DNA from: Candidatus Omnitrophota bacterium
Lineage (GTDB): Bacteria; Omnitrophota; Gorgyraeia; 2-01-FULL-45-10
Direction: 5' to 3'
NCBI GenBank assembly: GCA_903843285.1
Contig: CAIMPC010000057.1
Span: 6,456 to 70,455 of the forward strand
Length of the DNA: 64,000 nt
The notes beneath the pieces are model-generated. The model saw nothing but the letters and a program-made list of their open reading frames with translations. It made no database searches and was not told the origin of the DNA. Made by a program: the position numbers and the translations under genes. Below are positions 633 through 47,742 of the stretch, in pieces; the stretch's first letter is position 1, and the number at the start of each line of letters is the position of its first letter.

Positions 633-3600
633 TTACGCGGCGGAGCGGATCACGGTGATCGCATTTCTGTAGGTCTCGATCTCCTTACCATAGTCGATCG
701 GTAACACCCTGGGCAGATACTTAAAGATACCATCGGCATACGTAACACCAGCCGGTAATCTGCCTTCGGCTACTAATTGATCCAGCAGATCATTCGGCAT
801 GGTGACCATATTTAGAAGCGTCTGATAGTAGTTAATCGAGGCGATCTCTGTCTTCCCGCTTCCCACATCCACCGATTGAACCTCGAGGAGTTTTTCCCCG
901 CTGACAGGTCTAACACTATCAAACTCGCCTTTAGCGTAGGCTATGCCGATATTATTGATATTGATACTGCGATTATCACCGATCTCTGTGATAAGTTCTT
1001 CATACGGTATGCGGAGACTGCCGTCTGCATTAAAGCCATTCACAAACCTGATAGCATTAATATCTCCCTCATATCCGGAGGCCCTGATGAATGCTTTGGC
1101 TTCATCAGACGTCTTAAACTCTTTACCGTATATGAAGCAGTTAACCACACCCATCGCATTGGCCTTACTCATATTATCAGCGAAGAACATGTTAGAGGAT
1201 GCCACTGCCTCGGTCGTCGCCACCGCGTATGTCTTCTCGGCAAACGCGGGATTATCAGCCAGAGGCGCATTATATGCAAATCTTATTCCTTCTCTTCTTA
1301 CATTAATAGCAATCTTTAGCGCTTCTTTTCGCTCATTCAGCCATGATGTTTGCAACTGATATTTAAATTTCTCATCAAGGTTGTATTCTTCTATCCGTTT
1401 AAGCTGTCGGCGTATTTCTGTCAATATCTTCACGAGCTCTTCTCTGGTCTTCGAGCTTACAATGACGCTGGAAGCATCTTCTACGACCTGACTCAATGCC
1501 GGAGTAAGCACGTTGTAAGCACCTTGGCCCAGCATACTGTTATCGATAAATACACCATTATATTTACCGGCGTCTACATCCGCATTAAACTCATTCAAGT
1601 CGAGGGTAACTATATCGGCTCCATGGATAATTCCGGGTTGCGGCATTAAGCTAATAATGGTTTTGACGCGGGCCATGTTCTGCGCATCTGCCTCGGCGTT
1701 ATCTGGACCGCTTTGTTTCTGCAGAGCTATAATAAATTTCTTTCCACTTGGAACATGCACGCGAGCTATATTCTCTTTTGCCCTGACCTCTGCCACGCGC
1801 ATAGCAAAGAAGCCGGAGATAAGCGGCATGGTCCCTAACATAGCCGTCAGCTCACTCTTAAAGGTCTCGTGCAATACTATCAGATTCCTGGCGCTCTCAA
1901 GGAAACCGTTTCTATATAGAATTGAATCAGCTATAGATTCTGTATATATTGCCGCGGGAATGGTACCTCTTAAGGGAGATTCTTCGGTCGACCTTTGGCC
2001 TACCTCAGAATGACGTAATTGGATCTTCTCAAATCCCTTAAAGAATTCTATCCTTACCCTGCCCTCGCTATCGATGGTCCGGCGCGAGAGATCAGGCAGT
2101 TTCATTATAATGTCTACACCATCAAATCCCACACCGTAATATTCTCTGAAATACTTCCCAAAGGCTTCTGTTATATGGCTATTTAGATACCATAGCCTGA
2201 TAGCCATTGCCGTCGCTTCGAGGCCTGCCGTAAGGCCCACAGCCGCTCCTATTAATGGCAATATGTCATGGGTTTGCGATGCGGCTATCGATAGTAATAT
2301 CATACTTACAGCGCCCAATGCACCCAGCGCGGCAAACCCTGCAGACCACCACATGGCAACTTCGACATTAAAAGGATGCGCGACTTTCCTCGGCAATGCC
2401 CTTACGCGGGCTCTGGTAGCTGTTATCGCGCTGGGCCGGGGGGCATTATTAATCGCATCTATAACGCAATTGATTACCTTATAACCGGGTTTCCAATATC
2501 CACTGCCTGCGATAAAATACAGCTCTTCAGCGCTGATACCCAGTAGTTTGTTTATGTTCACGGGGAGCTCCAGATCTATGTCTTTCATAGTCCTGGATAC
2601 CGCTCGCTCTCCACGGTTAATCTTACCGGGATCCATAAAGATCTTTTTCGGTTCGAGGCTATTACAGCGTCTTTCGAGCTCCAGCGCTGTTTTGGGCCTT
2701 ATGACTCCGGCGACATATTCGCGGGTATTACTAAAGGTGACTCTACTTAATAGTAAGTCCTTCTCATCCGGACTTGGTATTAAACATTGTCCCGTCTTTA
2801 GCTCGGCTCTTTCATCTAACTTCTTCAAATCCTTCTTCAAAGCTTCTTCGGACAATTGTTTCTGTATTCTTTCCTCTATGTCTTGTCTTGGGTCACCTTT
2901 TAATAGTGGGATAAAGCCTTTGTAGTCGCCCAGATTATTGCCCATCGTAACGGCTAAATCCAGGGGCCTGGCTGATACCGGCAGTTCCACTGCCTGCATA
3001 TGCACCTTACCCTGCATATTCAAACCAAAATAGACTACATAGACACTATCTTTTAAGAAATCCAGTGTGCTGTTAAAATATCTGGTGTAATCACCGTAAA
3101 TAGGTTTAGTTGCCTTGAATACGGGGTAATTATGGCCAAACAAGCTCTGAGTAGGTTCCAAGTGCAGTAATTTATAGATCCAATGAGGTATAGGAGTCTT
3201 TGGCCCTGCGAGATACACGCCATTTTGATAGCTCACATAATTTTCTTTGGTCATCAACATCATTTCGATCGGGACCTCAGATCCAATCTGCCTTTTGCCT
3301 GAGGCGTCCATAGTTATTCGCGCGCACTGGAACGTAATATGCACAGCTTCATAGCCTCTTTTATGTATCGTAGGCGAGTCCGGATCGACCAAGCCGTCTC
3401 CAACCCTCATTCTTCCACTACTAAGAATTCTGGTAGATTCACATAATTTGCGAGCAATGAGGTCGCGAGTATCCTTAGTTTGAGTAACTACACGAACCCC
3501 GAGGATATCCTCTACCTTATATCCTTGTTTACCACCCTTTTCCGGATTAATGAATTTCTTATAGCAGCTGTAAACATTCTTAGGACGATATTCGACTGTG

Positions 3601-6600
3601 ACGTCCTCATCTTTAGGTATTAAACCGTTTCGCTTGGCAAGCCTTACATATGCTTCCAATCTCCCCGCTGCCAATACTAATACTTCTCTGAGGGTTTTTT
3701 TGTTTACATCGATGCCATTTAAGGCGACTGTCATCTGGCTGAGGGTCCATTTATAATTTCCCGGATATGCGGCCTTAAAAGCCTCATCGATAATATCGCT
3801 GGCTACTTCGTATAGGCCCAGCCTTTCAGCTACCGGCGAATAGATATATTCGACTTCTTTAAAAGCCTTTTGTTTAGCATTTTCCGGAGCACTATAAACA
3901 GAATCCAGTTTATAGGCCAGCAGTAACAGCATGCTATTCAGTGATCCCGTCAGCTGGATCATCATATTCATGTAAAACTCCAGAGTATTTTCTCCCCTGA
4001 GGAACTCTGCAAAATCTTTTTCTTTGGTGGAATCGAGAGTCTCGATTGCTTTTATAATATCTTCTATTTTTCCCGTACCCTTATAATTAGGGATCGTATC
4101 GAGCATCGCTCGTAAATTCTTCCGATCAATATTATGCAGTAACGCGGCGACGATCAAACGCTCATCTCCTATACCCCAACGAGCCAGGCTAGCCGCCATG
4201 TTAATAGAATGGCGATTGCCCGCGGCCATTTCGAATGCCGCCGTTATGCTATTCTCGGCAGAGACGACTTCTGCGCTGGAGAGCGTACTCTTCGCCCTGA
4301 ATAAGTTTATTATATTCCTAAGAGCCCTATTCGAGGCATTGATATCAGAGACGGATGTCAAATCCTCACTGATCGTTATCATATGCTTCTGGAGCAATTT
4401 ATAAAATTCTTCGTCACCCTGCTCGAACGCAACCCTCTCAGCCTTTGCCTGTAACTCTCTCTGGCTTCTGATAAAAGCTCCGAGAACCAATCCAAGCGGA
4501 TTATTCTTCTCGCTGTTATCAGTTTTATGATAGATAAATATCCTGTTATTACGGACAGTGGCCACTAAATTTGCGTGTGTGCCGCGCGGAGTTAACGCCT
4601 CCAAGGCTTCGTGCAGAATATACTCCTGGATAAGATTTCGCCTATACTTATTAATCATGGCATCGGATAATCCCGGGTAGCCAATGATAGTTCGCAGATC
4701 GCATGTCAATATAAACCTGACGACTTCCGGTGATAAACCGATCTTAAATTGGTGTTTGCCGTTAGCATCTACTTCCGAGCGAACCTTAGCCAGGCCCAAC
4801 AGGTGACCGGTATCGGGGGCTACTAAAGGCTCGAAGAAGAATATGGCTGATTTGTCTGATAATAGATCTACCGCGGCCTTAACGCGCGACGGGACGTTGT
4901 GCGCCGACACCACTCCGCCGACACTCTGCTGTAATCCTTCGGATATATCTCTAAGGGCTTTAGTCGAAGTCTCCAATTCTGTGATTTCAGGGCCATACTC
5001 TGCGGTCGGGTCGCTGATAATGCGCAGTAACTTCTCCTCTTGGCCTTTTTCGTTCATCCTTACTAATGCTATCGCCGTTTCGTAGTCAGGCGCATTTATT
5101 ACGTCCGCTATGGCCTTCTGTGCTCCGACAACCTCATTGCCCGCATGCCCGATCGCGCCGCCGAGCGGGGCGGGTGGGTTCTCGGTAGGTGGATTCTCCA
5201 AAGTAATAATCTTATTACCTTTGGCATCTGTGACCAGCTTGGAATCTACGGTTGATACCACAGGTGTCTGCGGTACGGCCGTTAAAGCAGCGGTCCTGAT
5301 GCCGCCCTTACGCTTTATAAAATCGATAATACTAATCAATACAGGATTCTCTGTTGCATAAAGAGCACTTTCACACACACGTATTTGGCATAGCTCATTA
5401 ACCTCCGTATACAGAGATTGCTGGGCTTTAGTAATGTTCTGGTTATTGATGTCGAGAAGAATTGATTGTTCCTTGGGTTCCAGGGAATCCCATATTGTTA
5501 TTGTTAATTCGGATTTGGCCTTATTAGCTACTTGCAATTCTTCATCATTTTGAGCTTTGGCTAGAGCAAAACGCACATCTCTGAGAGAATCAGCAAATCT
5601 CTTTGCGAGGGATAATGCCTTATTGGATAGGGCTTTATAAGCTACTGCCTTAAATTGTTCAAAACTCAGGTCATTTACCCTATCATATAGAACGGTGGAG
5701 GCCTTATCTCCATAAACAGCCTGAATATCCTTTCTATTATTATCGGTGAACCTATTGGATTGCCACATATCATTGGTTAATTGATCTTTTGCCTCATTAG
5801 CTGATTGCAATTCTTCATCATTTTTAGCTTTGGCTATAGCAGAACGCACATCTCTGAGAGAATCAGCAAATCTCTTTGCGAGGGATGGTACTTTCTTAGA
5901 TAAAATCTCATCGACTGCCTTCTTTAATTCTGCTAAGTTTAGCTCATTTACCTTGTCATATAGAGTGTCAGAGGCTTTATCACCATAAATATATACGAGT
6001 GCTGATTGCCCTTCAGGTGTCAGGGACTTAAATAGATTTTCTACCAGTGCGGATTTGGCCTTATTAGCTGATTGCAATTCTTCACCATTTTGAGCTTTGG
6101 ATAGAGTAAAACTCACATCTCTGATAGAATCAGCAAATTTCTTTGCGAGGGATGGCGCCTCATCTGCTAATACGCTATTTGCTACTCTCATAGATATTGC
6201 CAGGCTCAGCTCATCGACCCTCTTATATAGAGACTCCCGGACTGTAGTAATGTCCTGGTTATTGATGTCGAAAAGAATTGATTGTTCCTTGGCTTCCAGG
6301 GAATCCCATATTGTTATTGTTAATTCGGATTTGGCCTTATTAGCTGATTGCAATTCTTCATCATTTTTAGCTTTGGCTAGAGCAGAACGCACATCTCTGA
6401 GAGAATCAGCAAATCTCTTTGCGAGGGATGGCGCCTGATTAGACAGGATCTCATTGACTGTCTTCTTTAATATTGTCAGATTTTGCTCATCGACCTTATT
6501 ATATAGATACTCCCGGGCTTTAGTAATGTCCTGATTATTGATGTCGAGAAGAATTGATTGTTCCTTGGCTTCCAGAGAATCCCATATTGTTATTGTTAAG

Positions 6601-9600
6601 GCGGCCTTATCGCTACCAGCATTGGCTTCGCCCTTGCCTATGGAGATGCGGACGGTTATTAATTGTGAGGAGAATTGTTTTGCGAGGGATGGCACTTTCT
6701 TAGATAAAATCTCATTGACTGTCTTCTTTAATATTGCCAGGCTTAGGTTATTTACTATATCATACAGAACGGCGGGGGCTTTATCACCATAGCTATCTAC
6801 GAGCGCTGATCGTCCTTCAGGTGTCAGGGAATTAAATAGAACTTCTACTAGGTCGGATTTTTCTTTATCAGCCCTTTCTTTAATAGCGTTTGCTTTAACG
6901 CTATTGGTTTCTTGCTTGGCTTTCTCTATTAAGCTACGGACAGCTATTAATTTTAAGGAGAATTGCTTTGCGAGGGATAGTGCCTCATTGGATAGGATCT
7001 TATCGACTGCCTTCTTTAATTCTGCTAAGTTTAGCTCATTTACCTTGTCATATAGAATGCTTTTGGCGGATTTTTCATCACCATAAACATCGGTGAGAGC
7101 TAATTGTTCTTCAGGTGTCAGGGAATTAAATAGAACTTCTACTAGGTCGGATTTTTCTTTATCAGCCCTTTCTTTAATAGCGTTTGCTTTAACGCTATCG
7201 GTTTCTTGCTTGGCTTTCTCTATTAAGCTACGGACAGCTATTAATTTTAAGGAGAATTGTTTTGCAAGGGATAGCGCCTCATTGGATAGGATCTTATCGA
7301 CTGCCTTCTTTAATTCTGCCTGGCTTTGTTCATCGATCTTCTTATATAGATACTCCTGGGCTTTAGTAATGTTCTGGTTATTGATGTCGAGAAGAATTGA
7401 TTGTTCCTTGGGTTCCAGGGAATCCCATATTGTTATTGTTAAGGCAGATTTGGCCTTATTAGCTACTTGCAATTCTTCATCATTTTGAGCTTTGGCTAGA
7501 GCAAAACGCACATCTCTGAGAGAATCAGCAAATCTCTTTGCGAGGGATAATGCCTTCTCAGATAAGATCTTATCTGCTACTATCTTAGATTCTTCCAGAC
7601 TCAGGTCTTTTACTTTCTTATATATAGCCTTTTTGGCTTTAACTTCATCATAATCATACTTATCCAGAAGCGCCCGCTTCTCGTGACTGTGTAGCGCATT
7701 CCATATATATTCTTGATCGATTGTATTCCGATTACTCTGCACTTCATCTGCATTAACACTGCCTGGACGGATAAACCAGCCAATCCAAGGCACCAAACAG
7801 GCGACCAGCTCTCCATAGCCTGCATAATGCGTATTCTCGTGAAACTCAATATATCGCCGTATAAGTTTGTGTAAGACGTCGAATCCCGATGACTTCTTTA
7901 TTTCTCGCTTATTATCTAAGGAGATCTCAACCCACGCAATAGGCCCTGCACGTCCATGCATTGCCTTATTAATTTGTGCTAATGCTATCGCCTTTATTAA
8001 TGCATGGATCAAAAGATAACTACATAATACGCCAACTGCTACAAATACTCGGAACGTTATGTCCTGCCAACCATAACTTAGTGCCGCTATACTAAAAAAT
8101 CCAGCGCCAAAAAGCGCCTCAAAAATAGCCGTACGTACGATGAGATTCTTATCAAATGGCTGAATCCTTCCACCAAATTGATTTATTAATCTCTTGGCTA
8201 TTTCCTTCAGTACTTTATCTTGAGTCTTAGATAAGTTTGGCCGAGCGCCACCCGCAAAAACTCGACCCAATATTACAAAATATATCTCGTAAATTATACC
8301 TATAATACTAGCAAGGATACCAATTACAGCACTGCTTGTTACCATGGAGGCAAAAAATACAACAAATTTTGTGGGCAATCTCATCTGTCCCTGCCACGAT
8401 AGCGTGCTCATCACTCCACTAAATCCGCCATCACTCATAGGAACTGTAAAAGGTATAACACCCACTAAATGCCTCAGGACATCCACGGGGAAGAATGATA
8501 CCCATATGCTTATTATTAATATTCCAACACCAATCCCATATGTCCACCATTCCACACCTCGGGTCTCGTAATATTTCCCATTAACTTGCTTGCCTATTCC
8601 GAGCATCCAGCTCCATCCCGCAGCAAACATAAATGAGGCTAAAATGCTGGAAGTGCGCCACACGGCATTTGTCGATATAAATCCTGAGAACGATAAGGCA
8701 AATATGACAGGGATGGTATAAGTAACTATCTTTAATGCGGTATCAAATTTCTTAAATTCCGATGGCCATTTCTCCTTATCGGCACCATTTTTGATGGCAT
8801 AAATATACATAGCAATATTCGCAGTTATAATGGTTGCGATTATACCGCAACTTAATACAAAGTACGTTCCATTTAACTGAACTGCCAAGGAAGCTATATA
8901 GGGAATATATGACACGTACGCAGACAATATAACGCTGAGTGAAATAAGGATCGTCCACTTGAACATCTTTAGATAATAACTAATCATCGGATTGCCCTCA
9001 CCAACTACGGCGGCATTCCATACCAATGTGGGAGGCTTAACGTCCGGCAAAAATATATGATAGTATACAATCTTTAGGACCACGGGTAGTTGTCCAACCA
9101 GTAGAATTGGTTTAGTTACAATCTTCGTCAGGAAAATAGTGGTCGAGGCAACGAATTCGACCAGTCCTTTTAATAATTGCAAAACAAACAGGCAAGTTCC
9201 CTTTATACGCCCGTGCTCTTTGTATATCTGATTTCGCTCGGACGTGAATAAGCTTTTCAGCTTCGCTAAAGCAGGGAAAAATTTTGGACTGGTTAACAAT
9301 ATAATTATTGTTAAGAACGCAAATTCCCCGATTAATGGAAATAACATATCGAGGCTACCCGGTATAAACATAGCCTTAAACATGAGCACTAATTGAATAA
9401 GCCATATAAACTCTCCTAAAAGCCCTCTCACCACAAGATCTGACTCGTATCTGTGCCCCGGAGATAATCTGGGAATCCACATCTCGCCTGATGCTTCTCT
9501 AGCATTAATCCTATTACTACCTTCTTTAAATAACGATCTCAGAAGTAGGGTGCTTACCACCGCTCCTCCGAAGCACCATCCGATCATCCACAGCAGGGAC

Positions 9601-12600
9601 GTACCTATCAAGCCTACTATTACGGCCATTGGAATAGCGCCTGCTAAAATAGCGGCCGTCACCGGATAGTCTCGAATAAATGGTACAATCCTAATTACGA
9701 ATATCTGCGGCAGATCGAATACGTACATCCATCGAGTTGCTTCTCTGCGAGCCTCCTGACCATAGTTAAACATCGGATCTTCTTCGATGACGACTCTATC
9801 TAAATATTTGCACTTACCGCTCAATATAGTCAATACTTCGTCTTCGCTCTTGGGTAGTATATCATCAGTAGCTTTGAGATAGTTATAGTATGCCCATACC
9901 TTTTGGTAGGCATTAGTCGTGATCATGTCTCTGTAAAAATCCTCATTTCGGTAAGCATATTTACCGGGGGCGCGCAGTGAGTCTTCGATGATATATTGAG
10001 CCTGCGCAACATGCCCCAACATCGTCTGAGGAAAATCTTTCATAATATTAGAATGTATTGTGGCGTGCACATCGCTATAGATCATTTTTCCACGGAAGAA
10101 AGATTCCGTATTACGCCTATCGGCCATTACAGAAACTAGATACAAAATTCCCTCGCCTTTATGATCAGCCCTTTCGGCATAGCTTATTAAGTTACCCGGA
10201 TCGTATACAAGAGTATTTTTAATTCTACTTTTGCGCATTAGAGGAGGTATGCTCTTATCATTGATACTCTCTTGTCGTATATTCCTCAAATCATCAGGGT
10301 CGGCAGGATCGCCGCCCAATGTTTCGACTATAGGATTCATCCACTCATTATTCAAAGTAGGCTGATCCTTATTTTTAGCTTTTGAAATATCAGGGTCTAC
10401 ATTATATCTCGGATCGATCTTACAATATTCATCATCATCTTCGCGGAGCCATCTCTGCACAGAGTAGTGAGTAGGCGGTTTGGTCATTTTTTGTCTACGC
10501 AGATGTACGTAAACGCGTTTACGTACATGCTCAGGCATGGCATCCAAACGTTCTTGCACGAGCTTTAGTGTTGCCTTATAATGCTCCTCACCCTCTGTAC
10601 CAGATCCGCCAAAGACCTGAATCAATAAATCAAAATATAGATTATAATCCCTATTACCGTTGGGATCGCGCGCCTCTTCCATCATTTTCTCTACAGCCCC
10701 GATTCCTTCAGCGGTACCATCACCCATAACAGAATTGAAATTAGGCATATCTTTCAAAACCCCTGTCGCCAGATCTTTCTCCTTTCTCATCGGGAACGCC
10801 ATATGGATCATGGTCTTCTCGTCATCTGGAATTTTGCCCTGCTCTGTTATGTCGGTGCGCCTAAACTCCGGTTCCAATAGAGATCTGCCAGGCTTCACTA
10901 CATTATTGAATAACATGATACCCGCAGATGACAAATACACGCCCGGAATGATAGCTAAAAGCCACCAGGTTGTAACTGTATACAGAATAAGGTTTGAGGC
11001 CATAAAATTATTATAGTTATAGCAGGCCAGGATAGTAAGCACGAGGGCCGCCGTAACTACTGTGTTGAACCAATGATATAGAAAATGCTTTTGTGTTATT
11101 GCCAGCGACTCTACCACATTCTCCAGCCTTCTCTCGGCTTCCACCGGATCCAGCAATCTGGCGACCTCGTTCATCTTAAGATGCTTGGTAAGCAGTTCTT
11201 CATCTGCCGGCGGCTCTGCAGGTTTCGGCTTCAGTCTGGCAATAATCCCATCATTATAGCGTTTCTTGCCTAATCCCGTTATATATGTGCCGACAACCAC
11301 TAAGACCGTTAACACGAAAACAGAATTAAGATTGCCCCATCTGAACTTTTCCCAAAGATATTGTCTGAACTTTTCGAATTTCGACCAGTTTTTTTCTCTA
11401 ACGTATTTTGGGACCCCTCCTTCTGACACCTCTCCCCTAAGTCTGCCTTCCACTCTCTGTCTATCCATCGCGTTTATGGGGCGGGTAACGATCCTTTCAA
11501 AGGAATCCCTGTCATATTTAAGTGTTTCGAGACTGCCCAGGGTGTTAGTAGCTCCCATGACCGCATTTTCATCGAGGTATGTAAAGAGTTGCTTCGTTGT
11601 TATTTCCTGCGCAATATCATAGAGACTCCTCGGGGAGCTTGTCGGATTTTGCACTGACTTCGCGTTCTCTATTCTGACGGCTTCCGCTATTTCATTTTTT
11701 AAAGCAATGGCCCGCGCCGTCAACATCTTCACCACCGTCGGATTAATATCTTTCCTTAATATCTCGTGAGCGATATCCGCAATCTCTTTATCGTTCGCAA
11801 TGCCGACTCTCTTCAGCTCCGGTTTAATAATCGCGATTATGCCCGATATGCGAATATTATGGACGCATAACTCCGTTATAATCCTCTCGGATATCTCCTG
11901 AGCGTCGGCCTTAAGACCGTCCTCCTTCATCAGGGCTTTTTTCACATCGTCTATACTGTTTATTCTGTTCCCGAGACTGTCTCTGATTCTGGTAGATACT
12001 TCATTCACGCTGGCATCTTCCACTATGGAAGGCTCGACACGGCTAAGATAAGGACGAATAGCCGATGCTATAGGCACAGTATCGTATTCATCTACCACCA
12101 TATCGATTTGCGCGGGAGCCGAAATTATATGGTGCGCTGAAAGTTCCGCGGCTATATTATGGATAACTGACTTGTCTATGCCTATCCCCTCCAAGCGCGG
12201 GGCAATAGACTGGGCCAAGGCATCAACCTGAGAAGCATCTCCAATTTTAAAGGTATCAGATTTTTCAATAAGCCCTACTTTGAACCACGTATCCACCAGA
12301 TATAGAACATCCTGCATGTCTACCTTCGGATCTACTATGCGGGCGGATGCAGTTGCATCCATTATCATTTTATACGTATCTTTAGTTCTATCTACGAGAT
12401 TCCTTATATCATCCTCTCCGAGGCCACTCATAACAGCGTTCGTTGCCAACTTACGCGTCTCATCGTCAGTAAGATATATGCCCAGTTCATTAAATTGGTC
12501 CTTCGTAAGGCGAGATAACCTGAGAACTTCTTCCAGTAGATTCATCTCGATCCCGATATGGTTTTTGAAGGACCATAGACCAGCTTCATTCTTCAAGTCC

Positions 12601-15600
12601 TCAAGCCCCCGCTTCCTTTCCGGACTTAAACCGGGGACCTTTAACTTTGCGGCAATATAATCTATCTTCTCCTTGCGTATGCTACGTTCCATGTCTTCTC
12701 TATGCCGTGAATACATAAAGACCGCCTTCTCGCCGATGCTCTCGGCGAGAGTGGATATATTAGATTTATCATCTGTTGTTAATTGAGCGTCCCCCTTGCC
12801 ATAGGCTTTCTTATATATCTCGCGCACCTTTACCGGTAACACCTCGTAAACAAGTATAACGCCGTCTTCATCATATCCCAACCCCGTCATCTTATGTAAT
12901 AGTATCCCCGCTTCATCTTCATCTATCGGAACATCCAAAAGCCGCGCCTTTTCCATCAGACTTTTTAAAACTCTCTCTTTGCGCGCAGGATCCTTCTCGA
13001 TTACGATAGCCTCCTGTATCTTTTCCTTCCTCTCATCATTTACCTTGCGCTCGTAATCGACTAATACGGAATGCTTCGCGTTAAATCTAACATATATATC
13101 TTCCACCGCCTCTTTCTTCCGCAGTTCCGCCGCGATAAGGAACGTTCGTAGGCTTGGAGTAATAACTTTGTCTAATTCTTCGCATTTAGTATCGATAACG
13201 CCCAGCGCCTGTTCCATTGCTATGGATGGATTTCCATCACAGATAATGCGTCCAAGAAACCCCCTAAACGACTTAGAGACACTTGACTGCCCTTCAATAA
13301 GCTCACCTTTCTTCGCCGCCACCTGAGCCGGAGTCAACTTAAACGGCATCAGATCGGATGTCAATGCTTCAAATTCTTTTAATTCCGAAACCGCTCTTCC
13401 GGGAGAAGGAAATCTTCCAAAATCGATCCGCCATTTTCGTAATATAAACGCTATATCATCGTATCTTTCCGATCCCAAAAACAGCCCCATAAATGCCAGG
13501 TCTGCTTTGAACGCAGTCTCAAATTTTTTATGGGCCTGGAATTTTTGCACCCAAGTCATCAATTCATCGCTCTCAAGCCTTAATTGAGAGAGTACAGGAA
13601 ATATATTTTCCCATCCGATAAATGTCTGCATGTTCGCATAATTTTCTCCCTGCGCCCATGCTATATCCTCAAATGTGTCTTTGATCCATTTAATATCATT
13701 AAACCCCTTCCCTGCCTTCCTGGATTCCAGCGCTTTAATATACATACGCGCCACAAAGCCTCTCCTTTGTCCCGGAGTGGAAAGAGGTAGAGCTGCTTTT
13801 ATCTTATCGACCAAGCCGGTGCGTATCTTGCCTTCAACGTCTACTCGTTTAAGGTTATGGTATCTATCAGCATACCCAGATATCCTAATGTTGCTCAATC
13901 CATTTACATCCATCAGATTATCGACAAGAGTTCTCGTATCAAATACGGGCTGTGTCATCAAATACAGGAAGGCTTTTAACCTGTCATCAGAAAGTTTCCC
14001 TATATAATCCTTCATCAAACCATCCGCTATAACAGACGGAAGCTCCTTCTCCTTTTTCGTGTAGAGGGATTCGTTCAATATAAACGATCCCATAACTTCC
14101 TTTTGGTACCTCTCTCTTTCGGCCGTTTCCACAAGGTTAGACGCATCGGACATATTCAACCTTACAGGAGCTCCCAGTTCATCTCTATTATGTAGCATAT
14201 ACACAGCCTGAAGGTACATCTCTGCTGCCGTTTCACGCACCAACCCCCTGGTATCGATAGTATATCTCTTTCTGAACATGTACTTCATACCTTGCGATAT
14301 AGCCTCTCCAAAGGTGACATCTTCATTCATAAGGCCTTCTGTGGCCTTACCTTTCGGGCCTATATTCGATCCGTCAGAAGCTTTGGGGAGGCCTTTGATG
14401 TAATCATAGGCGGTAATAGCATCTTCTTTTTCCACTCCTGCCCCATCATGTATTTTTATTTTCACTGTCTCGCATGCATTATCCCTAAGACGGTTGGGGT
14501 GTCGGCTATGATCAATTTCATTGAGCAATTCCTGGCCGGCTATCAGGCGTATTTTCTTAGCATAAGCCACGTTTTCAAACAAGGCATCGACTGTTAAAGC
14601 TTTCCCGGTTGCGAGCTCATAACGAGGCCCATATTCTCTGATGGCTTTTCGTACCGCCTTTGAGAAATACGATAGTCCTTTTGCGTACACCCACACATTT
14701 ACATCATACTCTTTGCTCCATTTTCGCGAGGCGTCATGGACCTGCTCCCGCAGTGAAAAGTCTTCATCCCTGTATGCTTCAATCTTTTCCTTTAAAGCAC
14801 TGAAATCAATAATTCCATTATTGAAATTGTCAATATCTCCCTTTAGTTCGTCTGCATCGATAACTTGTATGGCAAAATATTTAGCCTCAGCCATCGCCGC
14901 GCCTTTTTGGAATATCTCTTCGGCGCTCTCTAACATATACCACGTATCTATATGCTTAAGGAATTTCTGTATGCGCTCCATACCTCTATCTGTAGCAACA
15001 GCCTGGAATAGTATCCGCACAAGGAGTTTGTTTACGGCATTTCCATTCGAATCAAAGAAGTCCTTCCAGCTTTCCGGCTTTACTGTAATGACCCTTCCGA
15101 TAGCCATTAGAATTCCGTTCTTCTCTCCTTCATCGAGAGGAAGATACTCCCCTACACTCCGTTCTAGATTAGGCATTACTATAGTATATAACTTTACTAA
15201 ATTCCTGCCGCTGGCTTCATCCGGCACTTTTCCATTTCTGTCGAAATAGCCTGCCCACGTCCTGGGTTTAACCATAAGATCGATCGCAATAGCTATCCTG
15301 CGGCCCTGGGCATCAGGATCATCGCCTATAAGTTCTTTTATCCCTAACTTTGTAGCCTCTAATTCGATCGTATGCTCACACTCATATATCTGGTTAACAG
15401 CTTCCGGATTTATAATTGCCCCTGTCATCTGAATCCACTTATTCTTTACCCACGCGGATTTTTTCTTCTTCGCCTCCATATCCATGGACGCGGACATTCT
15501 GCGGCCTTCTGATACAGGATCATCGCCCTTGAACTTCTCAACGTTGCATCTTACGGCTTCCAGAGCAAGCTTATCCGTAACGCCATAAATGTGGTTTACT

Positions 15601-18600
15601 TCACCGGCATTTATTGTGATAGGTTTGCTGGGCCTGGATTCATCTTCATATATCCATTTATTCCTCACCCAGACCGACCTCTGGGCCTTTGCGACTATAT
15701 CCATAGCCGTAGTGATCCTGCGCCCCTGGACTATCGAACTGTTCCCGGCGAGTCTATGAATATTCTTATTCTTCGACTTCGCCAACTCTGCTAACTCAGC
15801 ATTGATACGTAATATATGATTAACGGCATCGGCGTCTATAATTATAGGTTTGCCCGGCCTGGATTCATCTTCATATATCCATCTGTTCTTTATCCATGCG
15901 GACTTCTTCTTATTCGCTTCCATGTCCATAGCTATAGACATCCTGATACCTTTAGAAGTAGCATCTCTACCTAATAGCCCCGGAATGCGCTTTGCTCCGG
16001 GCAAAACAGCTTGCGTAGCGATATCGCCGGCTACTTTGAATATATGCTTGACAGTTATCGCATCTATCTTTATGGTCCTGGCATTGCCATAGGCCGCCAC
16101 TTTGATCCATCCGTTCTTTATCCACGGGCTCTTCGCCTTATTTTCCACCATATCTCTCGCCATTGCCATCGCATTATCTTTTATCTCTCGCCTGGTAAAA
16201 CCAGACTTCTTGAGGGCAAGTTTCAGGCTCGGTAATACGCTCTTAAACAACTCGTTAATATTACCAATGTTTCTTATTCTACCATCGCTGTTAAAGAAAT
16301 TTTTCCAAACAGAAGGATCGACCACCAGATCTCTCGCTATAGCTGTCGCGTAGTCATTTATCTCTTTAGGACTCAGCCCTACCGAGGCAAGCGATCCCTT
16401 TAGATTTGGCAGCACTGTTCCAAATAGTTCAACAACGTTCGCTTTCTGCGCAGGCGTATTTATATTGCCCTCTTTGTCAAAGAAATCTTTCCAGGCCACA
16501 GTCGCATCGGGATCCCCCATGAGGCCAAAGATTGTGGCTGTGATAAAGCCCTGAATTTCGGGATCCCCAGGATTTAAGGGATTCATATTCGCTTCTCTGA
16601 GCGTCCTATTTATATTACTGAAGAACTTATCAAATTTATCACGAAGCGTTATTATTTCCGATGCGCTCAAATTATTATCGCGACCAAACTTAGTCCAGTA
16701 GAGCGAATCTCCGATAGTTCTTATGCTTTCAAACCTTCTCTTCTCATCTCTTATGTGACCCTCTATGAGGGCGCCCATCCCGGGACGTCGATTTATTCTG
16801 TTATTCTCCTCTGCGAGCAATGTATCCAGCCAATTAACCATGTTAGCTTCAGGTAGCACAGATAACTGGTTATCGGACAGGTGCTTATACATTTCACGTT
16901 TAGGATCGCTACTATCAGCCCTAAGATTTAAGTCCTCTTTTAAAGTAACCAGTAAAGATGTTATTTCATCGAGTCTCAATCCAAGTTCTTTTCTGAATTC
17001 CGGATCCTTTGCGGCCTGACGAAAATCCTCTATACTAATCCACTTATTCAACATAAACTGCCTTGCAAGGGAATTAAGCAGGCCTATGTCTTCTCCATTA
17101 TCGCTCGTGGAGACCTTTCTACTATGAAGCCTCTCGGCCACAGGCTGTAACAGTTCTCTCGTAAAAGGCTCCAGATCCTTATCCAGTTTACCCCACTCAT
17201 ATCTATCGTTGTCCCGATAGAAACTGATCCACCATGAAGTGAATTCGTTACGCGCGATGCCGCTTCGCCTGACCATGTCGGCGACAGCATTCGGAGTTCC
17301 GGCCTTGCATAAATTCTTATACCAAACAAAATATTTCTTATCAGACTGGAACTTACCTAACACCTCTTTTCTTGCATCCGCCACATCTATTGCGGTCATC
17401 TTAGCGGATGGGGATACATAGTGAGGGCTTTGTAATGTGGTGCTCATTCTGGCATAATTACTTAACAATCCCATCAGACTGGGATCGACCGCACCTGCCA
17501 TCCCGAGATTTGGATCAAAGAATCTGGAAAACTCTCTGGGTAGCTTACCGTTACCGCCAATCGCTCTCCTCACCCGGGGTAGCACGCTTTCACAGACAAA
17601 TATATACTCATCCAGATACTTCAGGCTCTCTTCTTCGTTTAGGTTCGCCGTAAGCCTATAAGCCTCAAAGCAGGCCGCCAGAGCCTTTATTTTTTCAACG
17701 TCCTTGCCGATGCCGAGGGGCTTCGCTATCATTTCGGATCTTTCGAGAAGCCTGGAGACATAATTAGAATTAACTCTGCTGACAATATCTTCCCATTTTA
17801 GAAGATTTTTACCTGAGGCATCTTCGTTACTTACGATAGTGGATATTTTATCCACCAGAGCGGCCTTTTTGACTGGGATAGCTCTTAATTTTTTAGAATC
17901 TGAATCTGCGCGCTCCTGGCGGCCGACTTCTTCCCACTCAGCATATTTCCTAATCCATTCCGCTCTGGCTTGTTCCGATTTCTCGCGCTTCAACGACTCT
18001 GCTTTTACATCATCGTCGATCGACACTGTGGCGACTCTTATACCATCTGCCTTTTTATCTAAACCAAACCATCTTAGATATGTAATAAGCTCTTCGCTCT
18101 TATGTTTAAACATACCCAGATTCTTATCAAAGTCAGCTTTTGCCTCAAGCCAGTCGAGCCATACCCTGTTATACTTCTCCATGCTCACAGTAGGAGGATT
18201 ATGCTCATACTGATCTCTGATCTGCTGAAGCTCGGCCCATGCTATCTCTTTTCGTTCTCCGGATGATAAAGTTGCGCGATACTGAGCGCTCCAATCATCC
18301 GTTAAGAGGCGCATGTAACTCCTTAAACGCTCACGCGCTAATACGAGCTGGCCGCCGCTCTGATCCGGGGCAAGAGTTTTGGAGTCTATCTCCAGAGAGA
18401 TATCACTATCCTCCGCTCTATCCATGTTTATCTCCGTAACCTTAGGGACATTTTGCGCTTTTGGCTCGTTCAAAAGCTGTAGAATAAACTCAGCGCCTCC
18501 GGATGTCTGTAGTTTCATTAGCATGCTATACGCCAGATCGCTACATACACGCTCGGCTTCAATCTTCTTCTCTTCCAGGTTTCTGATTACATCTATCGTA

Positions 18601-21600
18601 AACTTATAAGCATCGCTCTTTTCCTTAAGCGGCTTTTGCCCTACGGCATCGAGCATCTCTATCTTAATCTTCTCGCTCCTTGCCTTCTCCAGGTCATTAT
18701 TTATATTTTCAATATTCGCCTTAGCCGTACGATAACGGCTGAATAGCGATGCCCAGTCAGCCCTCTCGCCCAGCTCAACCAATCTGGACAATAGCGGAAA
18801 ATTTTCGTCCCGTCTGGCATTCTGTAAATTCTGCCCGTACACTACGCTATCCATGTATGATAGCATCCCGCTTAAGCCGCTGAAACCTGCTTCATAGGGT
18901 AAGCCATCCAGCATATTTATATAGCTTCCCGGGGTATTAAATCGTTTAAACCCGAAGATCTGATTTTCATTAATCTCGACAGCCGTACCGCGCCTCATGG
19001 CCTCTGCCTTATTGTTAACAAGGTAGGCAAGGGCCTTCATCTCATCCGGAAGATTCGTCGCATTCGCCACATTGGTTAATCCGGTAAGCGCATTCAGATC
19101 CAGCCCTGCCAAAGCAAAGCTTTCCTCTAATCGAAGCTTATCTTTTTCAGCTACAGCAAGCCTCTCCTCTTTATCTTTAAGCTCAACGTCGGCTTTTATC
19201 CTGTCGCTTTCCGGCAGACTTTTCTTATCCTTTATCTCATCAAGCTTTCTCCGTGAATCATCACGTTCTTTTACGATTTCAGCTATGGCACGGTTAGCTC
19301 CGGTGAGATTAACCCACTCGCGCTGATACGTGTTTATCATATCTATCAATAAGTTGCGGGATTCTTTAATAGCCTGATTCAGATCGTTTCTCGCAGAGAC
19401 TATAGAATCAGGATCTGCAGGACCCAGCTCCATGAACTCAACAAGGCCTCCACCTGCCTGAGCCACTTTAACCCTCGTCGCAAGGCCGATGATACGGCTC
19501 CTTATAAACCAAATCTTCGCATCGCCATCGTGCCCCCTGGGGAAGAACTTACTCAGGTGATATTTCATATCTTTAAGCGAAAAATTCGGTACCTTAATCT
19601 CGTCTATTGTGATGCTGTATGGGGCCAATATCTCCCCGAGCACCATTTCATTCACTCTATTCTCTTTCTCAGCGGCCTGCAAATCTGTCTTCATACGTTC
19701 TATATCTTCGGTGACGCGAAGTTCATCTCTTAGGCCGGTGTCAAACTTCACTTTAAGATCTAAGTTCTGTTCTTTTATAGCCCTTAGCAATTCTTCTGCC
19801 TTTATCAGCTTATCCTTTATTTGCTTTAGCCTGGTTCTCGATGCCGAATATTCCAGATACTGGCGAAGTATCTGATCATATCTATTACTTAGGGCTATAT
19901 CCTTTTGGGCCTTGGCAACCTCGACATCCTGCCGCATGACTTCAATTTGATCTACAGGCAGGTTAATCCCTCTGGCGCGCACATTATCATACAGTAGCTG
20001 TTTCAGCTCCAGTCGTATACTAGCCCTACTGGTAGCGGCATCGTAATTAAATAAAAGATTCCCGAAGTCACTAATATTTCCCTGATTAGCTACATGGGCA
20101 CGTAATGCCTGCAGTAATTCCGGCGGGTTGACACCATTTTTACGCAAAACCGGCAAATCATGACTTAATCTGTTTTCGATAGCCCTGGAACGCTCAAAGA
20201 CCATCATTTTGTCATTTATCTCTTCGGGCCTGAGTTTTCTGGCATCGATTCCAGCCTTGCCCAAGTCCAAAATAAATTTGTCTTTCCTATTTAAAAGATC
20301 ATTCAATCTGGCCCTTGCCTGCTGAAGTTTATCCACAAGCAATATTTCATCTTCCTGGGAAATAAATTTTTCATCATTACCTTTGATATCCAGTTCGGCC
20401 TGGAGACTTGCGATATACTTATTGGCCGCGGCGATCTCTTCCTGGATATATTTCAGCTGGTACAGGGATATATGGATATTTAAGCCAAATTCATACAAGC
20501 TCTGCTGATAATTTACATATATCGCTTTCACGACATCCGGCGGCTTAACATCCAAACCCCACCCATTCGGCAAATAACCGAATATCTTATTGAGCTCCAG
20601 CTCGGGAGTGCCTGACAGGCCATCGCTGAGGAGATTTTCGAATAGTGATCTATCCTGGTCTGTCTTCCTAATATCTATAGTAAGGCCTGTAGATAAGCTT
20701 TCTCCTCTTAATGCTTTTATAAGCTTCAGGCATTCCTGTTTTTTAAACTTAGCTTCTCTCAGCTTATCTTTAGCGGCAGAGAGCATCCTGGTCGCCTTAT
20801 AACGCACTGCATCAGACGATCTGTGATTTTTGTACATTTCATCGCATCTGGTCTGAAGATCCCCGGCCAGGGCCGTATTTGCAACTTCATCTCTTTCCGA
20901 TTTCTCATATTCCTGATATGCCGACATCATCGCACAGATCAAATCGTTTTCGGCATGCTTACGCAATGCCTCTTCGGGTATGGAACCAATCTCCTGCTCA
21001 GGCATCAGAACGGTTCCGGGGGTAGCCTTGATTAGCGTTACTGTGCCAAGACCTGCATTTGTATATGCCGCATACGGGTCACGGTTACGTTCAAATAGGT
21101 CTACAAAGCCCGGGACGGTCAGCTTATAGTCCCTCATTGCAGTCGCGACCCTGGCTCGAAGATTCTCTGATCTGGGCCGGCCTTGCTCTGAAGATGCAAC
21201 ATTTCTCATAGCATACGTAATGGATTCGTTAAGCATCTGCATATTGGATGCGTTCATTGCAGAGGCCTGATACCGTGATGGATAGGTCACTGAAGGTCTT
21301 TGAGTCAGTGGTGCGACATTCGGCTGAGCTGAGGGCATCGCAACCGGTAATCTAACCGACGGCTGTGCTGATGGTGCTATCCGACTCACCACCGGCACCG
21401 CCTTTAACCCGTCTTTATTGACGACGAGATTGCGGTTTAGCGCGATTTTCTGGCCTTTTTTCATCGGATCTTTTAGGCCGAGAACGGCGTGTAAGAAATT
21501 GGATTGCATATCGGTGGCCGGATTCACATCCTTCTTCATCGTTAGATCTGATGTTAAGCTTATGGATATACTATCTCCTGCCGGCTTAAGTATCATCCTG

Positions 21601-24600
21601 ATCGTGCCGGTGTAGTGCTCGGTATCTACATTAAAGAATATCTGGTAGACGGATTGTCTGATCTTACCTATAGAAGCCTGAGTTATCGTGCCTATGTTCA
21701 TATTTGCACCCACGCTCAAGCCTCTGGCGATAAAAGTCATGTGACCATTACCATCGAAGGCTAATATCTCAGCGCCAGAGAATGTCCTTTGACCAGTCGC
21801 TTTATGGAAGATCTGGATCTGCCCCATATCGTGGCCATTGCGATGCTGGAACCGCGTATATTTTTCAGCTTTATTATTGTAGATTAGTAACGGAATGGGC
21901 ACATTATGATCGGGATCGGATGGTTTAGACTGAACCAGCCAGTCAATGTCAGGATATACAATGTCGGTAGCGTACCCTTGAAGATTCGGTGTTTGCTCTA
22001 CCTTTTGCGTAGATACAGTAACGACCGGTGCCGTTGGTACCCTGGCCGATGCCGCAAGCTTTGCCAGATACCCTGACTGACTATAGCCTGGCGAGCTGAC
22101 TATCGCCTCCAGGCGATTCATGTACCTTTCATTTTGCAATTTCTGATCTGCTACAGGAATATGCTCGTAATCGGAGAATAATTTTCTTAGTGCGCCGTGA
22201 TCTAATATTTTGTCCAGGGCATCAGCCGGTGGTGCGCGTTCTCTCTGCGGCTTCGCCTGCGCCACTTCTCTTGGCGCGGCCGCCACCGTGGTAATGATCC
22301 TGCCATTCGCAGCCTCGTCTACAACATTACCGACATTTCGACCAAGCGTTCTCCATCCATTCGCTCGTTGTGACGAATCTCTCATACGACTGATAGCCGC
22401 AGTAACAGCGGCCGGATCGACCTTTTTACCGCTTCCGATCTCGCCTAAAACTTTCTGTCCTTCCTGAGCATATGCGACCACCGGATAGACCACCATGGGC
22501 ACGGCAATCGCAGACGCCACGGCTACTTTTCCCAGCATGCCTGAGAAATACTCCGAAGTAGCCCGCCCCATCATCTTCTCTATATTCACTCCGTATTTAT
22601 TTATTAGAATCGCCGTCACGCCGATAGCGCTGACAAATAACGCCGTCTGCATCACGCCGCTAAATATCACAAACGCCGCAGGTATCGCCATGGCATACAT
22701 CAATATGTTTCTCGAACTCGGAATAAATGATTCGGCGAAAGTGCGCCAATAGCTCTGCTTGGCAGAGAGTGCCTCCTGCCCTAATTTGGCCGCCTGTACA
22801 AACTGAAATATTATAGCCAGTACACCTATAACTGCCATCGGAACCGATATTAAAGGTGCCACAGAGATTGAGGACAACATACCCGCGGAGCCGAATAAGG
22901 ATGATAAGGTTACGAGTCCTGCGCCTACTATAATGCCGAGGGCGTTTCCTATATACATAGGCCACCTGGCCCTAAAGAAGCCGCGCTCCGCCTCCCTACC
23001 GACGACATTGGCCGCAAGTGATGAAATAGCTATCGCGCCTAATGACACGCTCGTGATAAATAGAGACCCTCCGGCTATCTGTATGGCAAAGAGCACGCTT
23101 ACCGATATCACCATCGCCCTGACGAGGGAGTTCACTCCGGACTCAAAACGAGTGGGAGTTACATCAGTGACTTTACTCAGGTCTTTCCTGAACAAGCCTA
23201 TTAGAATAACATTCGCCAGAAATGCCATAACTGCCGCGCCAAATGCCAGTGGTATTGCAGGAAGGGCCAGAGATCCTACTGCTATCACGGGGTGCGCGAC
23301 TGCCGCTATCAGCGTTCCTGCGGCAGTAAACAAGCCCGGCCCTGCGAGAAGCTGAAGAGCCATGACACCTGTCCATCTAATCAAGGCATTTAAGAAGCTC
23401 CCCTTTCCTACGCCGGCGGTGAACCTCATGAAATCGGTCGTAGATGTATCGAGCTGTCCTATCTTCTTTCCGTAAATCTGGCTAAAATATACCGTTATGA
23501 TGAGTAGCGATGCGGTTGCAACACCTGCGATCACAGGCTGTGAGATAAGAGACTGAATTATCGGATCTAAGAGCTCCTTAGTGAATGATGAGAGGCCATA
23601 TCTGGCAAACAATGTCCCTATACCAAGCACCAGTATTATCGATGCCGCCGTCTTTACAAAACCTTCCGATAGTAAATTCGTAAATGAGTACGGCCTTGTC
23701 TCCTGAATATTTTCAACCTCGCTACCCATGGCGGAGGCCACAATAACGGTGATGAAATCTTTTATATCGCTGATTTTGTTATTGAAATTGCGTGCAAGAA
23801 ATGCCGCATTGGACAGCTCTTTGTCGAACTGGACGAAAGCCCCTTTTAATCCGACCCGAGACTGGCTCGCCAGGTACTCCAGACGTTTTCTCGTGGATTG
23901 CTGTTCCGTCTGAAACTTGCTAAGTTCATCAGTAAGTTTTTTCTGTATAAGGACTTGTAAGTCTGCGATCTTACTATCTAACTCGCTGTCACTCTTCACA
24001 CCGGCTCTGAGACCCTCGTATGAACCCGTCTCTCTTAAGAACTTTACAAATTCATCCTTCGAGGCTGTCATACTAAGGAGATTCAATACCTGCTGTTGGT
24101 ATAAAAACACCTCCTGCTCGTACGCACGTCTCTTCTCATCGCTTCTATTCTTCTCGCTTGCGATCCTATCCCTGACCTCTGCTGTCAGGCTCTCGACGAG
24201 CTTCGTATCGGATCTTTCAATAGCGCCCCTCAACCCTGCTAATTGCTGGTTCAGGAGCTTGGCGTGCTCTTTAAGTGTATTCTCATCGAGCGAGAATAGG
24301 CCCTCCCACGATCCTTTGTTAGTTCCTCTGTCACCGCGGCCTTGAGTCTGAATTTCAAATGCCTCTGATTCATCGAGATATGCAGATATTACATGCAGTC
24401 CTGGAGCTAATTGATCGAGAGGTGGAACTTCCTCTCCTTCCGAACCATCCTTATTAAGGAAACGCCCTCTTATAGTAATATCTATTCCACGGTGCGCAAT
24501 ATTTGTGGTTATCGTAAGTATGTTGCCATAACCGGCAATGCTTATAGCGCGATTAAACTCTTCGGCATTGCCTCCATTAGCTTCATTAATTATTATTCCA

Positions 24601-32264: not shown

Positions 32265-32313
32265 TTCGCCTCTCGACTCCAACGTGATAGTTTATCCAAG
32301 AGAAGGAAACTTA

Positions 32314-32400
32314 CTTCGTCATCCTGAGCGAAGCCCGATAGGGCGAAGCGAAGGATCTCGTTTTTAGATTCTTCGGCCCCTTCGCCCTCAGAATGACGAG
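32314..32400. repeat. Hairpin repeat element copy 4 (intergenic, between the GT-C/TPR gene and der).
   Basis: CGTCATCCTGAGCGAAGCCC...GAAGGATCTCG...AGATTCTTCGG...CTCAGAATGACG. Confidence 0.55.
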
Positions 32401-32566
32401 GGGGAACTTTCTCACGCTAATCTATTACACTCTAGCTACTGTGGGCTTCGTAGGAATAGGTCCTTCGAAGCTCCATTACGGTCTAACTTCAGTAGCGAAG
32501 AAGACCATTCTACTTCGCCTCCATAAGGGAGCGTATTTTACCATGGCGGTGTGCGTTAGGGAAGAT

Positions 32567-34069: not shown

Positions 34070-34101
34070 ATATTCTCCGGAGGATACAAGGATGTTTTCT
34101 T

Positions 34102-34680: not shown

Positions 34681-34696
34681 CTCTCCTCCATATCTT

Positions 34697-47739: not shown

Positions 47740-47742
47740 CTT

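Follow-up and report, generated by a model that had tools for sequence, protein, structure and literature searches.

A diverged RelA/SpoT-type module, predicted to lack hydrolase activity and to face the cytoplasm, in a giant SecA-domain protein of Candidatus Omnitrophota

What would a giant membrane protein do with a RelA/SpoT homologue (RSH) near its C-terminus? The question arises from a stretch of 64,000 nucleotides from a Candidatus Omnitrophota bacterium (assembly GCA_903843285.1, contig CAIMPC010000057.1, positions 6,456 to 70,455), hereafter the window, whose minus strand carries an open reading frame (ORF) of 30,060 bp for a protein of 10,019 amino acids. A first-pass annotation of the window, made without database searches, had noticed in this ORF an RSH-type HD domain followed by an alarmone-synthetase domain, and had considered either a delivered effector of the toxSAS (toxic small alarmone synthetase) type or a local signalling module. 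Our working hypothesis, to which we assign a probability of about one half, is that the segment is a membrane-tethered, cytoplasm-facing, hydrolase-dead RSH unit that would still transfer pyrophosphate from ATP.

All six motifs on which the annotation had relied lie in one frame of this single ORF (Table 1), and its placement of the segment inside a giant membrane protein is real. Around these motifs we delimit an RSH module composed of a pseudo-HD domain, a helical linker, a pyrophosphokinase (SYNTH) domain and a TGS-like domain. The interval originally proposed, 3200–4450, holds five of the motifs, but IPHWIYKL falls just outside it and the module reaches window position 2688 with a TGS-like domain that had gone unnoticed; moreover, the module begins 8,827 residues into the protein and not about 8,000. 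As claimed, the HD and SYNTH domains form a genuine RSH unit, on which family-model, profile, phmmer and structure-model comparisons all agree. Specifically, the NCBIfam model TIGR00691 (spoT_relA) matched with an E-value of 2.9e-20 (72–78 bits, below the family cut-off of 499.2), the Pfam model HD_4 scored 27.7 bits against a gathering threshold of 27.2, and phmmer against PDB sequences gave an E-value of 3e-6 to the catalytic half of Thermus thermophilus Rel, followed by RelSeq, the Rel proteins of Bacillus subtilis, Staphylococcus aureus and Mycobacterium tuberculosis, and Escherichia coli RelA. A profile built from the alignment of 14 related modules (profile A2) matched residues 32–420 of B. 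subtilis Rel (6yxa) with an E-value of 3.1e-43, in an alignment that spans the HD domain, the helical linker, SYNTH and the start of TGS including 'LPSGSVPIDF' (the LPxGxxPxDF motif). Searched against a database of 5.8 billion sequences, the same profile reached 3e-48 with canonical long RSHs; with the small alarmone synthetases (SAS) YjbM and RelP it reached ~2e-7. Likewise, an AlphaFold2 (AF2) model of residues 8799–9329 (mean predicted local distance difference test score, pLDDT, 72.7; predicted template modelling score, pTM, 0.79) had its best Foldseek matches to full-length or N-terminal Rel, SpoT and RelA (E-values of 7e-13 to 1e-9), compared with ~1e-4 for small alarmone synthetases including SAS1 and 5e-4 for CapRel. 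Based on these profile and fold matches, which lie far beyond chance, we regard it as secure that the segment is an RSH homologue. The module derives from a long RSH and is highly diverged, its identity to the long enzymes being only ~16–27%.

By sequence, profile and fold alike, the module is most similar to the long RSHs (Rel, RelA and SpoT; 6yxa, 1vj7, 6s2t, 5iqr and 7qpr), with which it shares the order HD, helical linker, SYNTH, TGS as well as the motifs RxKxxYSxYxK, DxxGxR, GYxxxH and HWxYK and the catalytic Asp and Glu. The linker aligns with that of T. thermophilus Rel in the phmmer comparison and carries a conserved 'IYSPVAERLGLY' motif, with AF2 helices at module residues 139–223, while the TGS-like region aligns with the TGS domains of P0001 and P0002, bears the conserved elements 'ELPVSARPLDLA' and 'LKTGQ', and has AF2 strands at module residues 418–440, 462–464 and 505–508. 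The resemblance ends here: no alignment of the module to long RSHs extends past TGS, none of PF13291, PF19296 and PF28438 matches in place of the C-terminal regulatory domains (helical, zinc-finger or RIS, ACT or RRM), and a transmembrane hairpin follows instead. In contrast to the free long RSHs of ~700–800 amino acids, the module is embedded in a membrane protein and lacks the helical, zinc-finger and ACT domains.

We compared the catalytic sites using the residue numbering of RelSeq and B. subtilis Rel. The HD site keeps H53 (H8828) and H77 (H8853) and is altered by D78N (N8854), E81R (R8857), D82K (K8858) and D144Y (Y8927). Because four of the six metal-binding and catalytic residues are gone, hydrolase activity is predicted to be very unlikely, as in RelA; the annotation had reached this prediction from the HN dyad, and the three further substitutions strengthen it. 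The SYNTH domain, by comparison, retains R241 (R9036), K243 (K9038), S247 (S9042), K251 (K9046), D264 (D9062), G267 (G9065), R269 (R9067), Y308 (Y9114), H312 (H9118), E323 (E9143) and HWxYK, which reads HWIYK; of these, R241, K243 and K251 belong to the ATP-binding residues. The catalytic Asp of DxxGxR and the Glu of ExQxRT, which the annotation had singled out, are therefore both kept on alignment, and D264G and E323Q each abolish synthesis in RelSeq (PMC13299517). E. coli RelA is similar in that it keeps the HD fold without its metal-binding and catalytic residues and also keeps D264 and E323; it differs in possessing ExDD, an intact ExQxRT and a full ribosome-binding C-terminal region.

The module does not stand alone. 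A HMMER search with residues 8600–9799 against 1.84 billion cluster representatives returned 197 proteins with E-values ≤1e-3, of which the best dozen or so aligned to residues 8827–~9310 at 28–35% identity and carry the module inside long proteins (for example, at residues 1001–1460 of 2,047, 2514–2736 of 5,805 and 422–679 of 7,967); ordinary RSHs of ~700 amino acids scored far lower. We defined a subfamily by absence of the Asp of the HD dyad together with a residue other than R or K at R327, and at least 36 sequences including the giant protein combine both changes, compared with 126 canonical RSHs, all of which have R or K at R327. The split is imperfect, a few sequences having only one of the two changes. 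Pairwise identity of the subfamily to the giant protein is ~23–35%. Within the 36 sequences, K243 and D264 are invariant, R241 and K251 are each kept in 35, E323 in 32 and S247 in 31. The HD Asp is mostly replaced by Lys and was lost independently of RelA. The sources that are named, for part of the set, are Ca. Omnitrophota, among them Ca. Omnitrophus magneticus and Ca. Orphnella occulta, save two metagenome-assembled genomes labelled Deltaproteobacteria and Endomicrobiales. Thus, embedding of an RSH domain in a membrane protein, which the annotation had called unusual, is real, but the arrangement recurs in large and giant proteins of Omnitrophota and the signature is shared by this whole set. 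Automatic annotations already flag members as 'RelA/SpoT domain protein' or 'HD domain-containing protein'. Other searches added little: a word-indexed homologue search with the module gave only two weak canonical RSH matches; the same type of search with the subfamily profile gave canonical RSHs and no subfamily members and is unfit for sizing the family; a scan of GTDB genome contigs found only the ordinary Rel of 'Bacterium 3DAC' (24% identity); and a scan of JGI metagenome contigs found no match.

Members of the subfamily come in three forms, namely stand-alone proteins of 543–771 amino acids, multi-enzyme proteins of 1,600–2,400 amino acids with fusions to HAD, methyltransferase, GNAT, metallophosphoesterase or glucanotransferase domains, and giant-protein fragments that reach 7,967 amino acids in length. 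For two stand-alone members of 722 and 680 amino acids, we inspected the gene neighbourhoods (L007 1842–10990 and L009 358–4567). Both neighbourhoods are of a housekeeping kind. One member adjoins a pstSCAB-phoU phosphate-uptake operon and a gene for an RF-1-domain (ArfB-like) protein, both members lie near an MFS_3 transporter gene, and rnf genes also occur in these neighbourhoods; at neither locus did we find a small partner gene typical of toxin–antitoxin pairs. Since MFS_3 is close by in either case, the context may be a conserved one. In Ca. O. magneticus, the 'RelA/SpoT domain protein' KJJ84230.1 (P0006) contains the same module, 33% identical over the best-matching stretch and with the same HD and ExQxRT changes. 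Its ORF of 1,513 codons lies directly downstream of one of 3,394 codons, with a gap of 82 bp (L004 1–14542, JYNY01000381.1), and the N-terminal part of the longer product is homologous to residues 100–543 of the giant protein. The association of the RSH module with this kind of large protein thus recurs. The longer product has HEAT_2 and ADP_ribosyl_GH matches, and no SecA-like domain is recorded in the pair, for which only automatic annotation is available. The pair resembles a shorter giant protein split in two, and the split may be an artefact of the draft genome.

On which side of the membrane does the module lie? About 110 residues past the module, the giant protein has a two-helix hairpin, and we counted Lys and Arg residues in the 20 residues before it, in its loop and after it. 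The counts are 5/0/3 for the N-terminal flank, the 5-residue loop and the C-terminal flank, and the hairpins that follow the module in P0142, where the hairpin begins immediately after the TGS-like domain, and in P0003 give 6/0/6 and 6/0/4, respectively. By the positive-inside rule, hairpins flanked in this way would have both ends, and hence the module, in the cytoplasm of the producer. A cytoplasmic location is also to be expected because ATP-dependent chemistry requires it. Since K/R-rich loops also flank the transmembrane helices ahead of the SecA-like ATPase module of the same protein, the two modules would share one side of the membrane.

The SecA-like module closely follows a transmembrane cluster whose predicted cytoplasmic loops are strongly K/R-rich and is, besides the RSH module, the only part of the giant protein with Pfam, NCBIfam or PDB-sequence matches. 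It matches NCBIfam SecA with an E-value of 4.8e-37 over model positions 88–595 of ~790–800, has GGGKT as Walker A and a DETD motif, and does not match the last quarter of SecA; scaffold and wing are lacking. A hydrophobicity scan placed hydrophobic helices in five clusters, at residues ~1451–1556, 2340–2741, 6457–6595, 7011–7567 and 9445–9498. PDB sequence searches with the remaining ~6,000 residues of soluble regions gave no match; Pfam scans found no peptidase domain able to release the RSH module, and C39 or S8 peptidase, dockerin and glycoside-hydrolase domains were not detected either. We rejected the possibility that the ORF is an assembly or prediction artefact: a 30-kb open frame at 44% GC is not attainable by chance, and neighbouring genes of the locus are found on 9–18 independently assembled contigs.

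The host protein belongs to the class of giant SecA-domain proteins already described for Omnitrophota. These proteins have many transmembrane helices and a SecA DEAD/preprotein-binding domain that is diverged and has neither scaffold nor wing (West-Roberts et al. 2023), and our protein resembles them in its Omnitrophota origin, very long ORF, many transmembrane helices and few recognisable domains (West-Roberts et al. 2023; Seymour et al. 2023). It differs in size, since those of West-Roberts et al. exceed 30,000 amino acids (genes of >90 kb) compared with the 10,019 amino acids and 30,060 bp here. RelA/SpoT is unmentioned in the main texts of West-Roberts et al. 2023, a 2026 complete-genome preprint, Seymour et al. 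2023 and the 'huge proteins' survey, and neither ppGpp nor alarmones are mentioned in the main texts of the first two. Similarly, a literature search found no paper combining Omnitrophota with ppGpp, and the main text of the RSH classification of Jimmy et al. 2020, which distinguishes 30 SAS, 11 small alarmone hydrolase (SAH) and 13 long-RSH subfamilies, mentions neither Omnitrophota nor transmembrane RSH forms. We conclude that the subfamily is found mainly in Omnitrophota and that the searchable literature holds no description of it that we could find.

Based on the catalytic sites and the predicted topology, we suggest the following working model. The module would be held at the membrane of the producer, facing the cytoplasm, by the following transmembrane hairpin, an anchor that would take the place of the ribosome-binding C-terminal domains of long RSHs. 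Lacking alarmone hydrolase activity, it would bind ATP and Mg2+ and pyrophosphorylate an acceptor at its 3'-OH; the simplest such acceptor would be GDP or GTP, with (p)ppGpp as the product. The giant envelope protein would thus carry its own RelA-like, synthesis-only signalling unit, by which the state of the protein, such as its assembly, its secretion or its contact with a surface, could be converted into a local nucleotide alarm signal.

Several points weigh against this model. Q325 and R327 of the giant protein are both Met (M9145 and M9147), ExQxRT reading EMMLMT, which makes the motif ExMxMT in contrast to the long RSHs; RxKD/ExDD, which the long RSHs also have, is absent, with LVDP at its position; and the contacts K297 and Y299 have no counterpart. 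The synthetase motif set that the annotation had described as complete is hence present in all the motifs it quoted, but has lost Q325, R327 and RxKD/ExDD. In RelSeq, Q325 contacts bound pppGpp in the synthetase site, R241 and R269 sandwich the ATP adenine, and Y308 stacks on the guanine (PMC7983052, PMC13299517); for R327 of ExQxRT, we found no stated role in this literature on RSH residues (PMC7983052, PMC13299517). Across the 36 subfamily sequences, Q325 is kept in 21, H312 in 20, R269 in 16 and Y308 in 15, and the drift of the last three could be decay toward a pseudoenzyme. The profile support that the annotation had asked for came from HD_4 but not from the Pfam model RelA_SpoT (PF04607), for which the single-sequence score of 23.6 bits lies below the gathering threshold of 27; several subfamily members (for example, P0004, P0005 and P0012–P0018) exceed it. 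Finally, the topology is a prediction from the positive-inside rule, and topology predictions for Omnitrophota giant proteins have been described as unreliable (West-Roberts et al. 2023 preprint). Taken from the alignments, the ATP/Mg side of the giant protein's SYNTH domain is intact and its acceptor side changed. Because the triphosphate/Mg side is conserved across the subfamily while the acceptor and base-stacking side drifts, we read the pattern as selection for a nucleotide-triphosphate/Mg site combined with a changed or variable acceptor. Since the acceptor pocket would then be remodelled, a product other than (p)ppGpp could be formed.

The same losses can be taken to mean that the module is an inert remnant or pseudoenzyme that makes no product, its RSH fold serving as a scaffold, as a sensor of nucleotides or alarmones, or as a dock for tRNA or the ribosome via the TGS-like domain. 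Missing Q325, R327 and RxKD/ExDD, poorly kept acceptor-side and adenine-stacking residues in the subfamily, an HD site that is already dead and the low RelA_SpoT score of the giant protein would all fit this explanation. We nevertheless consider it rather unlikely, as invariance of K243 and D264 and retention of R241, K251 and E323 in 32–35 of 36 sequences that are only 23–35% identical are hard to explain without a selected triphosphate/Mg2+ site, and the giant protein itself keeps R269, Y308 and H312. Alternatively, the module could be an active pyrophosphokinase that regulates the producer's translation or metabolism through a non-canonical acceptor, either adenine nucleotides, yielding (pp)pApp, or the 3' CCA end of tRNA. 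The TGS domain of long RSHs contacts the tRNA 3' end, and in the toxSAS enzymes FaRel2 and CapRel, the acceptor is the 3' CCA end of tRNA. The conserved donor site, the replacement or variability of contacts to the guanine and the 5'-phosphate (K297, Y299, Q325 and, in the subfamily, Y308) and the TGS-like domain retained beside SYNTH are consistent with such an acceptor, and Tas1, an RSH-domain enzyme that makes (pp)pApp, provides a precedent (PMC7229694). Still, retention of Y308 and H312 in the giant protein fits guanosine, and a search of the anti-phage defence library PADLOC-DB, which should include CapRel-type RSH models, revealed no similarity to toxSAS or CapRel models; we therefore regard this alternative as unlikely.

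The same search bears on the delivered effector of the toxSAS or Tas1 type, in which the giant surface protein would carry the module into prey or host cells to deplete nucleotides or poison them with alarmones. Omnitrophota have been proposed to be predators or parasites, with giant proteins implicated in prey contact; secreted RSH toxins such as Tas1, a type VI secretion system (T6SS) effector with SYNTH fused to a delivery domain, do exist; and the acceptor site of our module has diverged. Moreover, toxSAS, CapRel and Tas1 resemble it in that SYNTH occurs in unusual contexts and, in some of them, with a changed acceptor. However, these enzymes have a single SYNTH domain with neither HD nor TGS and are paired with antitoxin or immunity genes, whereas our module has the long-RSH architecture of pseudo-HD, SYNTH and TGS-like domains. 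The PADLOC-DB search found no significant match, its best E-value being 0.054 to an unrelated candidate family, and the positive-inside hairpin places the module on the cytoplasmic side in three homologues. The stand-alone relatives adjoin pst/phoU, RF-1-domain and MFS genes and no antitoxin or immunity gene, and the giant protein has no detected peptidase domain for release of the module. Weighing these points, we rejected the effector proposed in the annotation as very improbable and infer that local signalling by a tethered, cytoplasmic unit is the better reading.

Table 1 Features of the giant ORF and its RSH module. Window positions count from the first nucleotide of the window; for motifs, the first residue is given (the motif set spans residues 8849–9175).
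Feature	Window position	Strand	Residues	Basis or remark
Giant ORF	633..30692	minus		Multi-pass membrane protein with N-terminal signal anchor; ORF list, translation, hydrophobicity scan
SecA-like ATPase module	24117..25883	minus	1604-2192	DEAD-like, preprotein-binding and P-loop domains (Pfam)
RSH module	2688-4214	minus	8827-9335	Pseudo-HD, helical linker, SYNTH, TGS-like
Pseudo-HD domain	3813..4214	minus	8827-8960	Pfam HD_4, alignments to canonical RSHs
Central helical linker (three-helix-bundle region of long RSHs)	3603..3812	minus	8961-9030	phmmer alignment, AF2 model
SYNTH (pyrophosphokinase) domain	3153..3602	minus	9031-9180	Pfam RelA_SpoT, alignments, site table
TGS-like beta-grasp with helical insertion	2688..3095	minus	9200-9335	Profile alignment, AF2 strands
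Transmembrane hairpin	2193..2360	minus	9445-9498	Hydrophobicity scan, K/R flank counts
Conserved C-terminal domain, ~370 residues	636..1745	minus	~9650-10019	Function unassigned; ends '...YLPRVLPIDYGKEIETYRNAITVIRSAA'
Motif AALLHN	4131-4148	minus	8849	Motif in giant ORF
Motif YRPKNVYSCYKKF	3552-3590	minus	9035	Motif in giant ORF
Motif EDILGVRVV	3486-3512	minus	9061	Motif in giant ORF
Motif RGYEAVHITFQ	3327-3359	minus	9112	Motif in giant ORF
Motif VPIEMMLMTKENY	3237-3275	minus	9140	Motif in giant ORF
Motif IPHWIYKL	3168-3191	minus	9168	Motif in giant ORF

Other parts of the giant protein deserve mention. Its conserved C-terminal domain is 35–47% identical to the C-termini of P0014, P0015, P0020 and P0129, proteins of 378–697 amino acids, and ends in the conserved pattern YLPxxxPIDYGKEIETYRNAIxxIRxAA. 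It has no Pfam or PDB match, and a fold search with its AF2 model (pTM 0.54), seemingly a pair of alpha/beta lobes, gave nothing significant. Two HExxH motifs on the minus strand, 'VLVHESVHHRRGD' at window ~26545–26559 (residues 1378–1382) and 'EFHENTHYAGYG' at ~7825–7839 (residues 7618–7622), lie in unannotated regions, each near a transmembrane cluster, and could be zinc-metalloprotease sites or chance occurrences. A hydrophobic stretch on the same strand, 'LLLAMVIGATLFISGCGST' at window ~27246–27302 (residues 1131–1149), has the look of a lipoprotein signal, lipobox (L-x-x-C) included, but lies 1,130 residues from the N-terminus; if it were taken for a transmembrane helix, this would clash with the positive-inside pattern of the following helices.

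With regard to the gene neighbourhood, only 632 bp downstream of the giant gene lie within the window, and they contain, directly downstream on the minus strand, an ORF ('MDRIKHSRLFKCISFVLIITFLTLDIAYAYPPEH...', window 1–~300) with a signal-peptide-like N-terminus that runs off the window. Upstream, window 30969–45825 (minus strand) encodes a Der GTPase, a tetratricopeptide repeat (TPR) protein, rubrerythrin, RpoN (sigma-54), an NtrC-type sigma-54 activator, a second response regulator, a PAS histidine kinase and a Cache-HAMP-PAS histidine kinase. This nearby sigma-54 regulatory block might control the giant gene. The named best relatives of the Der GTPase are all from Ca. Omnitrophota or Omnitrophica, with at most 70% identity. 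In the closest of them (Omnitrophota metagenome-assembled genome JAPLME010000010.1, L005 11442–21296; Der 70% identical), the several unannotated ORFs downstream of Der encode 280–1,304 amino acids and have no detectable similarity to the giant protein; therefore, the giant gene is not syntenic even within the lineage. Further upstream, a gas-vesicle cluster (window 46936–57678, minus strand) comprises five consecutive GvpL/GvpF paralogues, one fused to a DnaJ domain, together with a CDC48-type double AAA ATPase, an ArsA-type ATPase, an HSP20-like protein and an AAA_5 (GvpN-like) ATPase; we know of no discussion of gas vesicles as a trait of Omnitrophota. A single ORF of 500 codons at window 62402–63904 (minus strand) combines PilM-like and PilN-like type IV pilus assembly domains, and pilus and type II secretion genes have been noted near giant genes (West-Roberts et al. 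2023). An Rfam scan of the window gave no match.

The giant proteins of Omnitrophota rank with the largest proteins predicted for any organism, and essentially no function has been assigned to them. In the 10,019 residues analysed here, only a SecA-related ATPase and an RSH module are recognisable, and both apparently face the cytoplasm; the two modules thus represent two expressible handles on the cytoplasmic parts of giant proteins. The surprise of finding an RSH module in such a protein is lessened by GGDEF and NUDIX hydrolase domains already reported in giant proteins, which provide a precedent for enzyme and nucleotide-signalling domains there. For the stringent-response field, the subfamily represents a group with a hydrolase site that is predicted to be dead, an apparently intact ATP/Mg site, an acceptor site that appears remodelled and no ribosome-binding C-terminus. 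Should it be active, the subfamily would represent an alarmone synthetase under a control other than that of the ribosome, possibly with a new product. A more speculative and doubtful extension is that the Omnitrophota RSH subfamily as a whole is an active pyrophosphokinase whose remodelled pocket takes neither GDP nor GTP as its acceptor; adenine nucleotides, the 3' ends of RNA or tRNA and further metabolites would be candidates. If this were true, a membrane-tethered module beside a SecA-like motor would couple contact with prey or host, or the export state of the giant protein, either to a new second messenger or directly to the control of translation in these ultra-small predatory bacteria.

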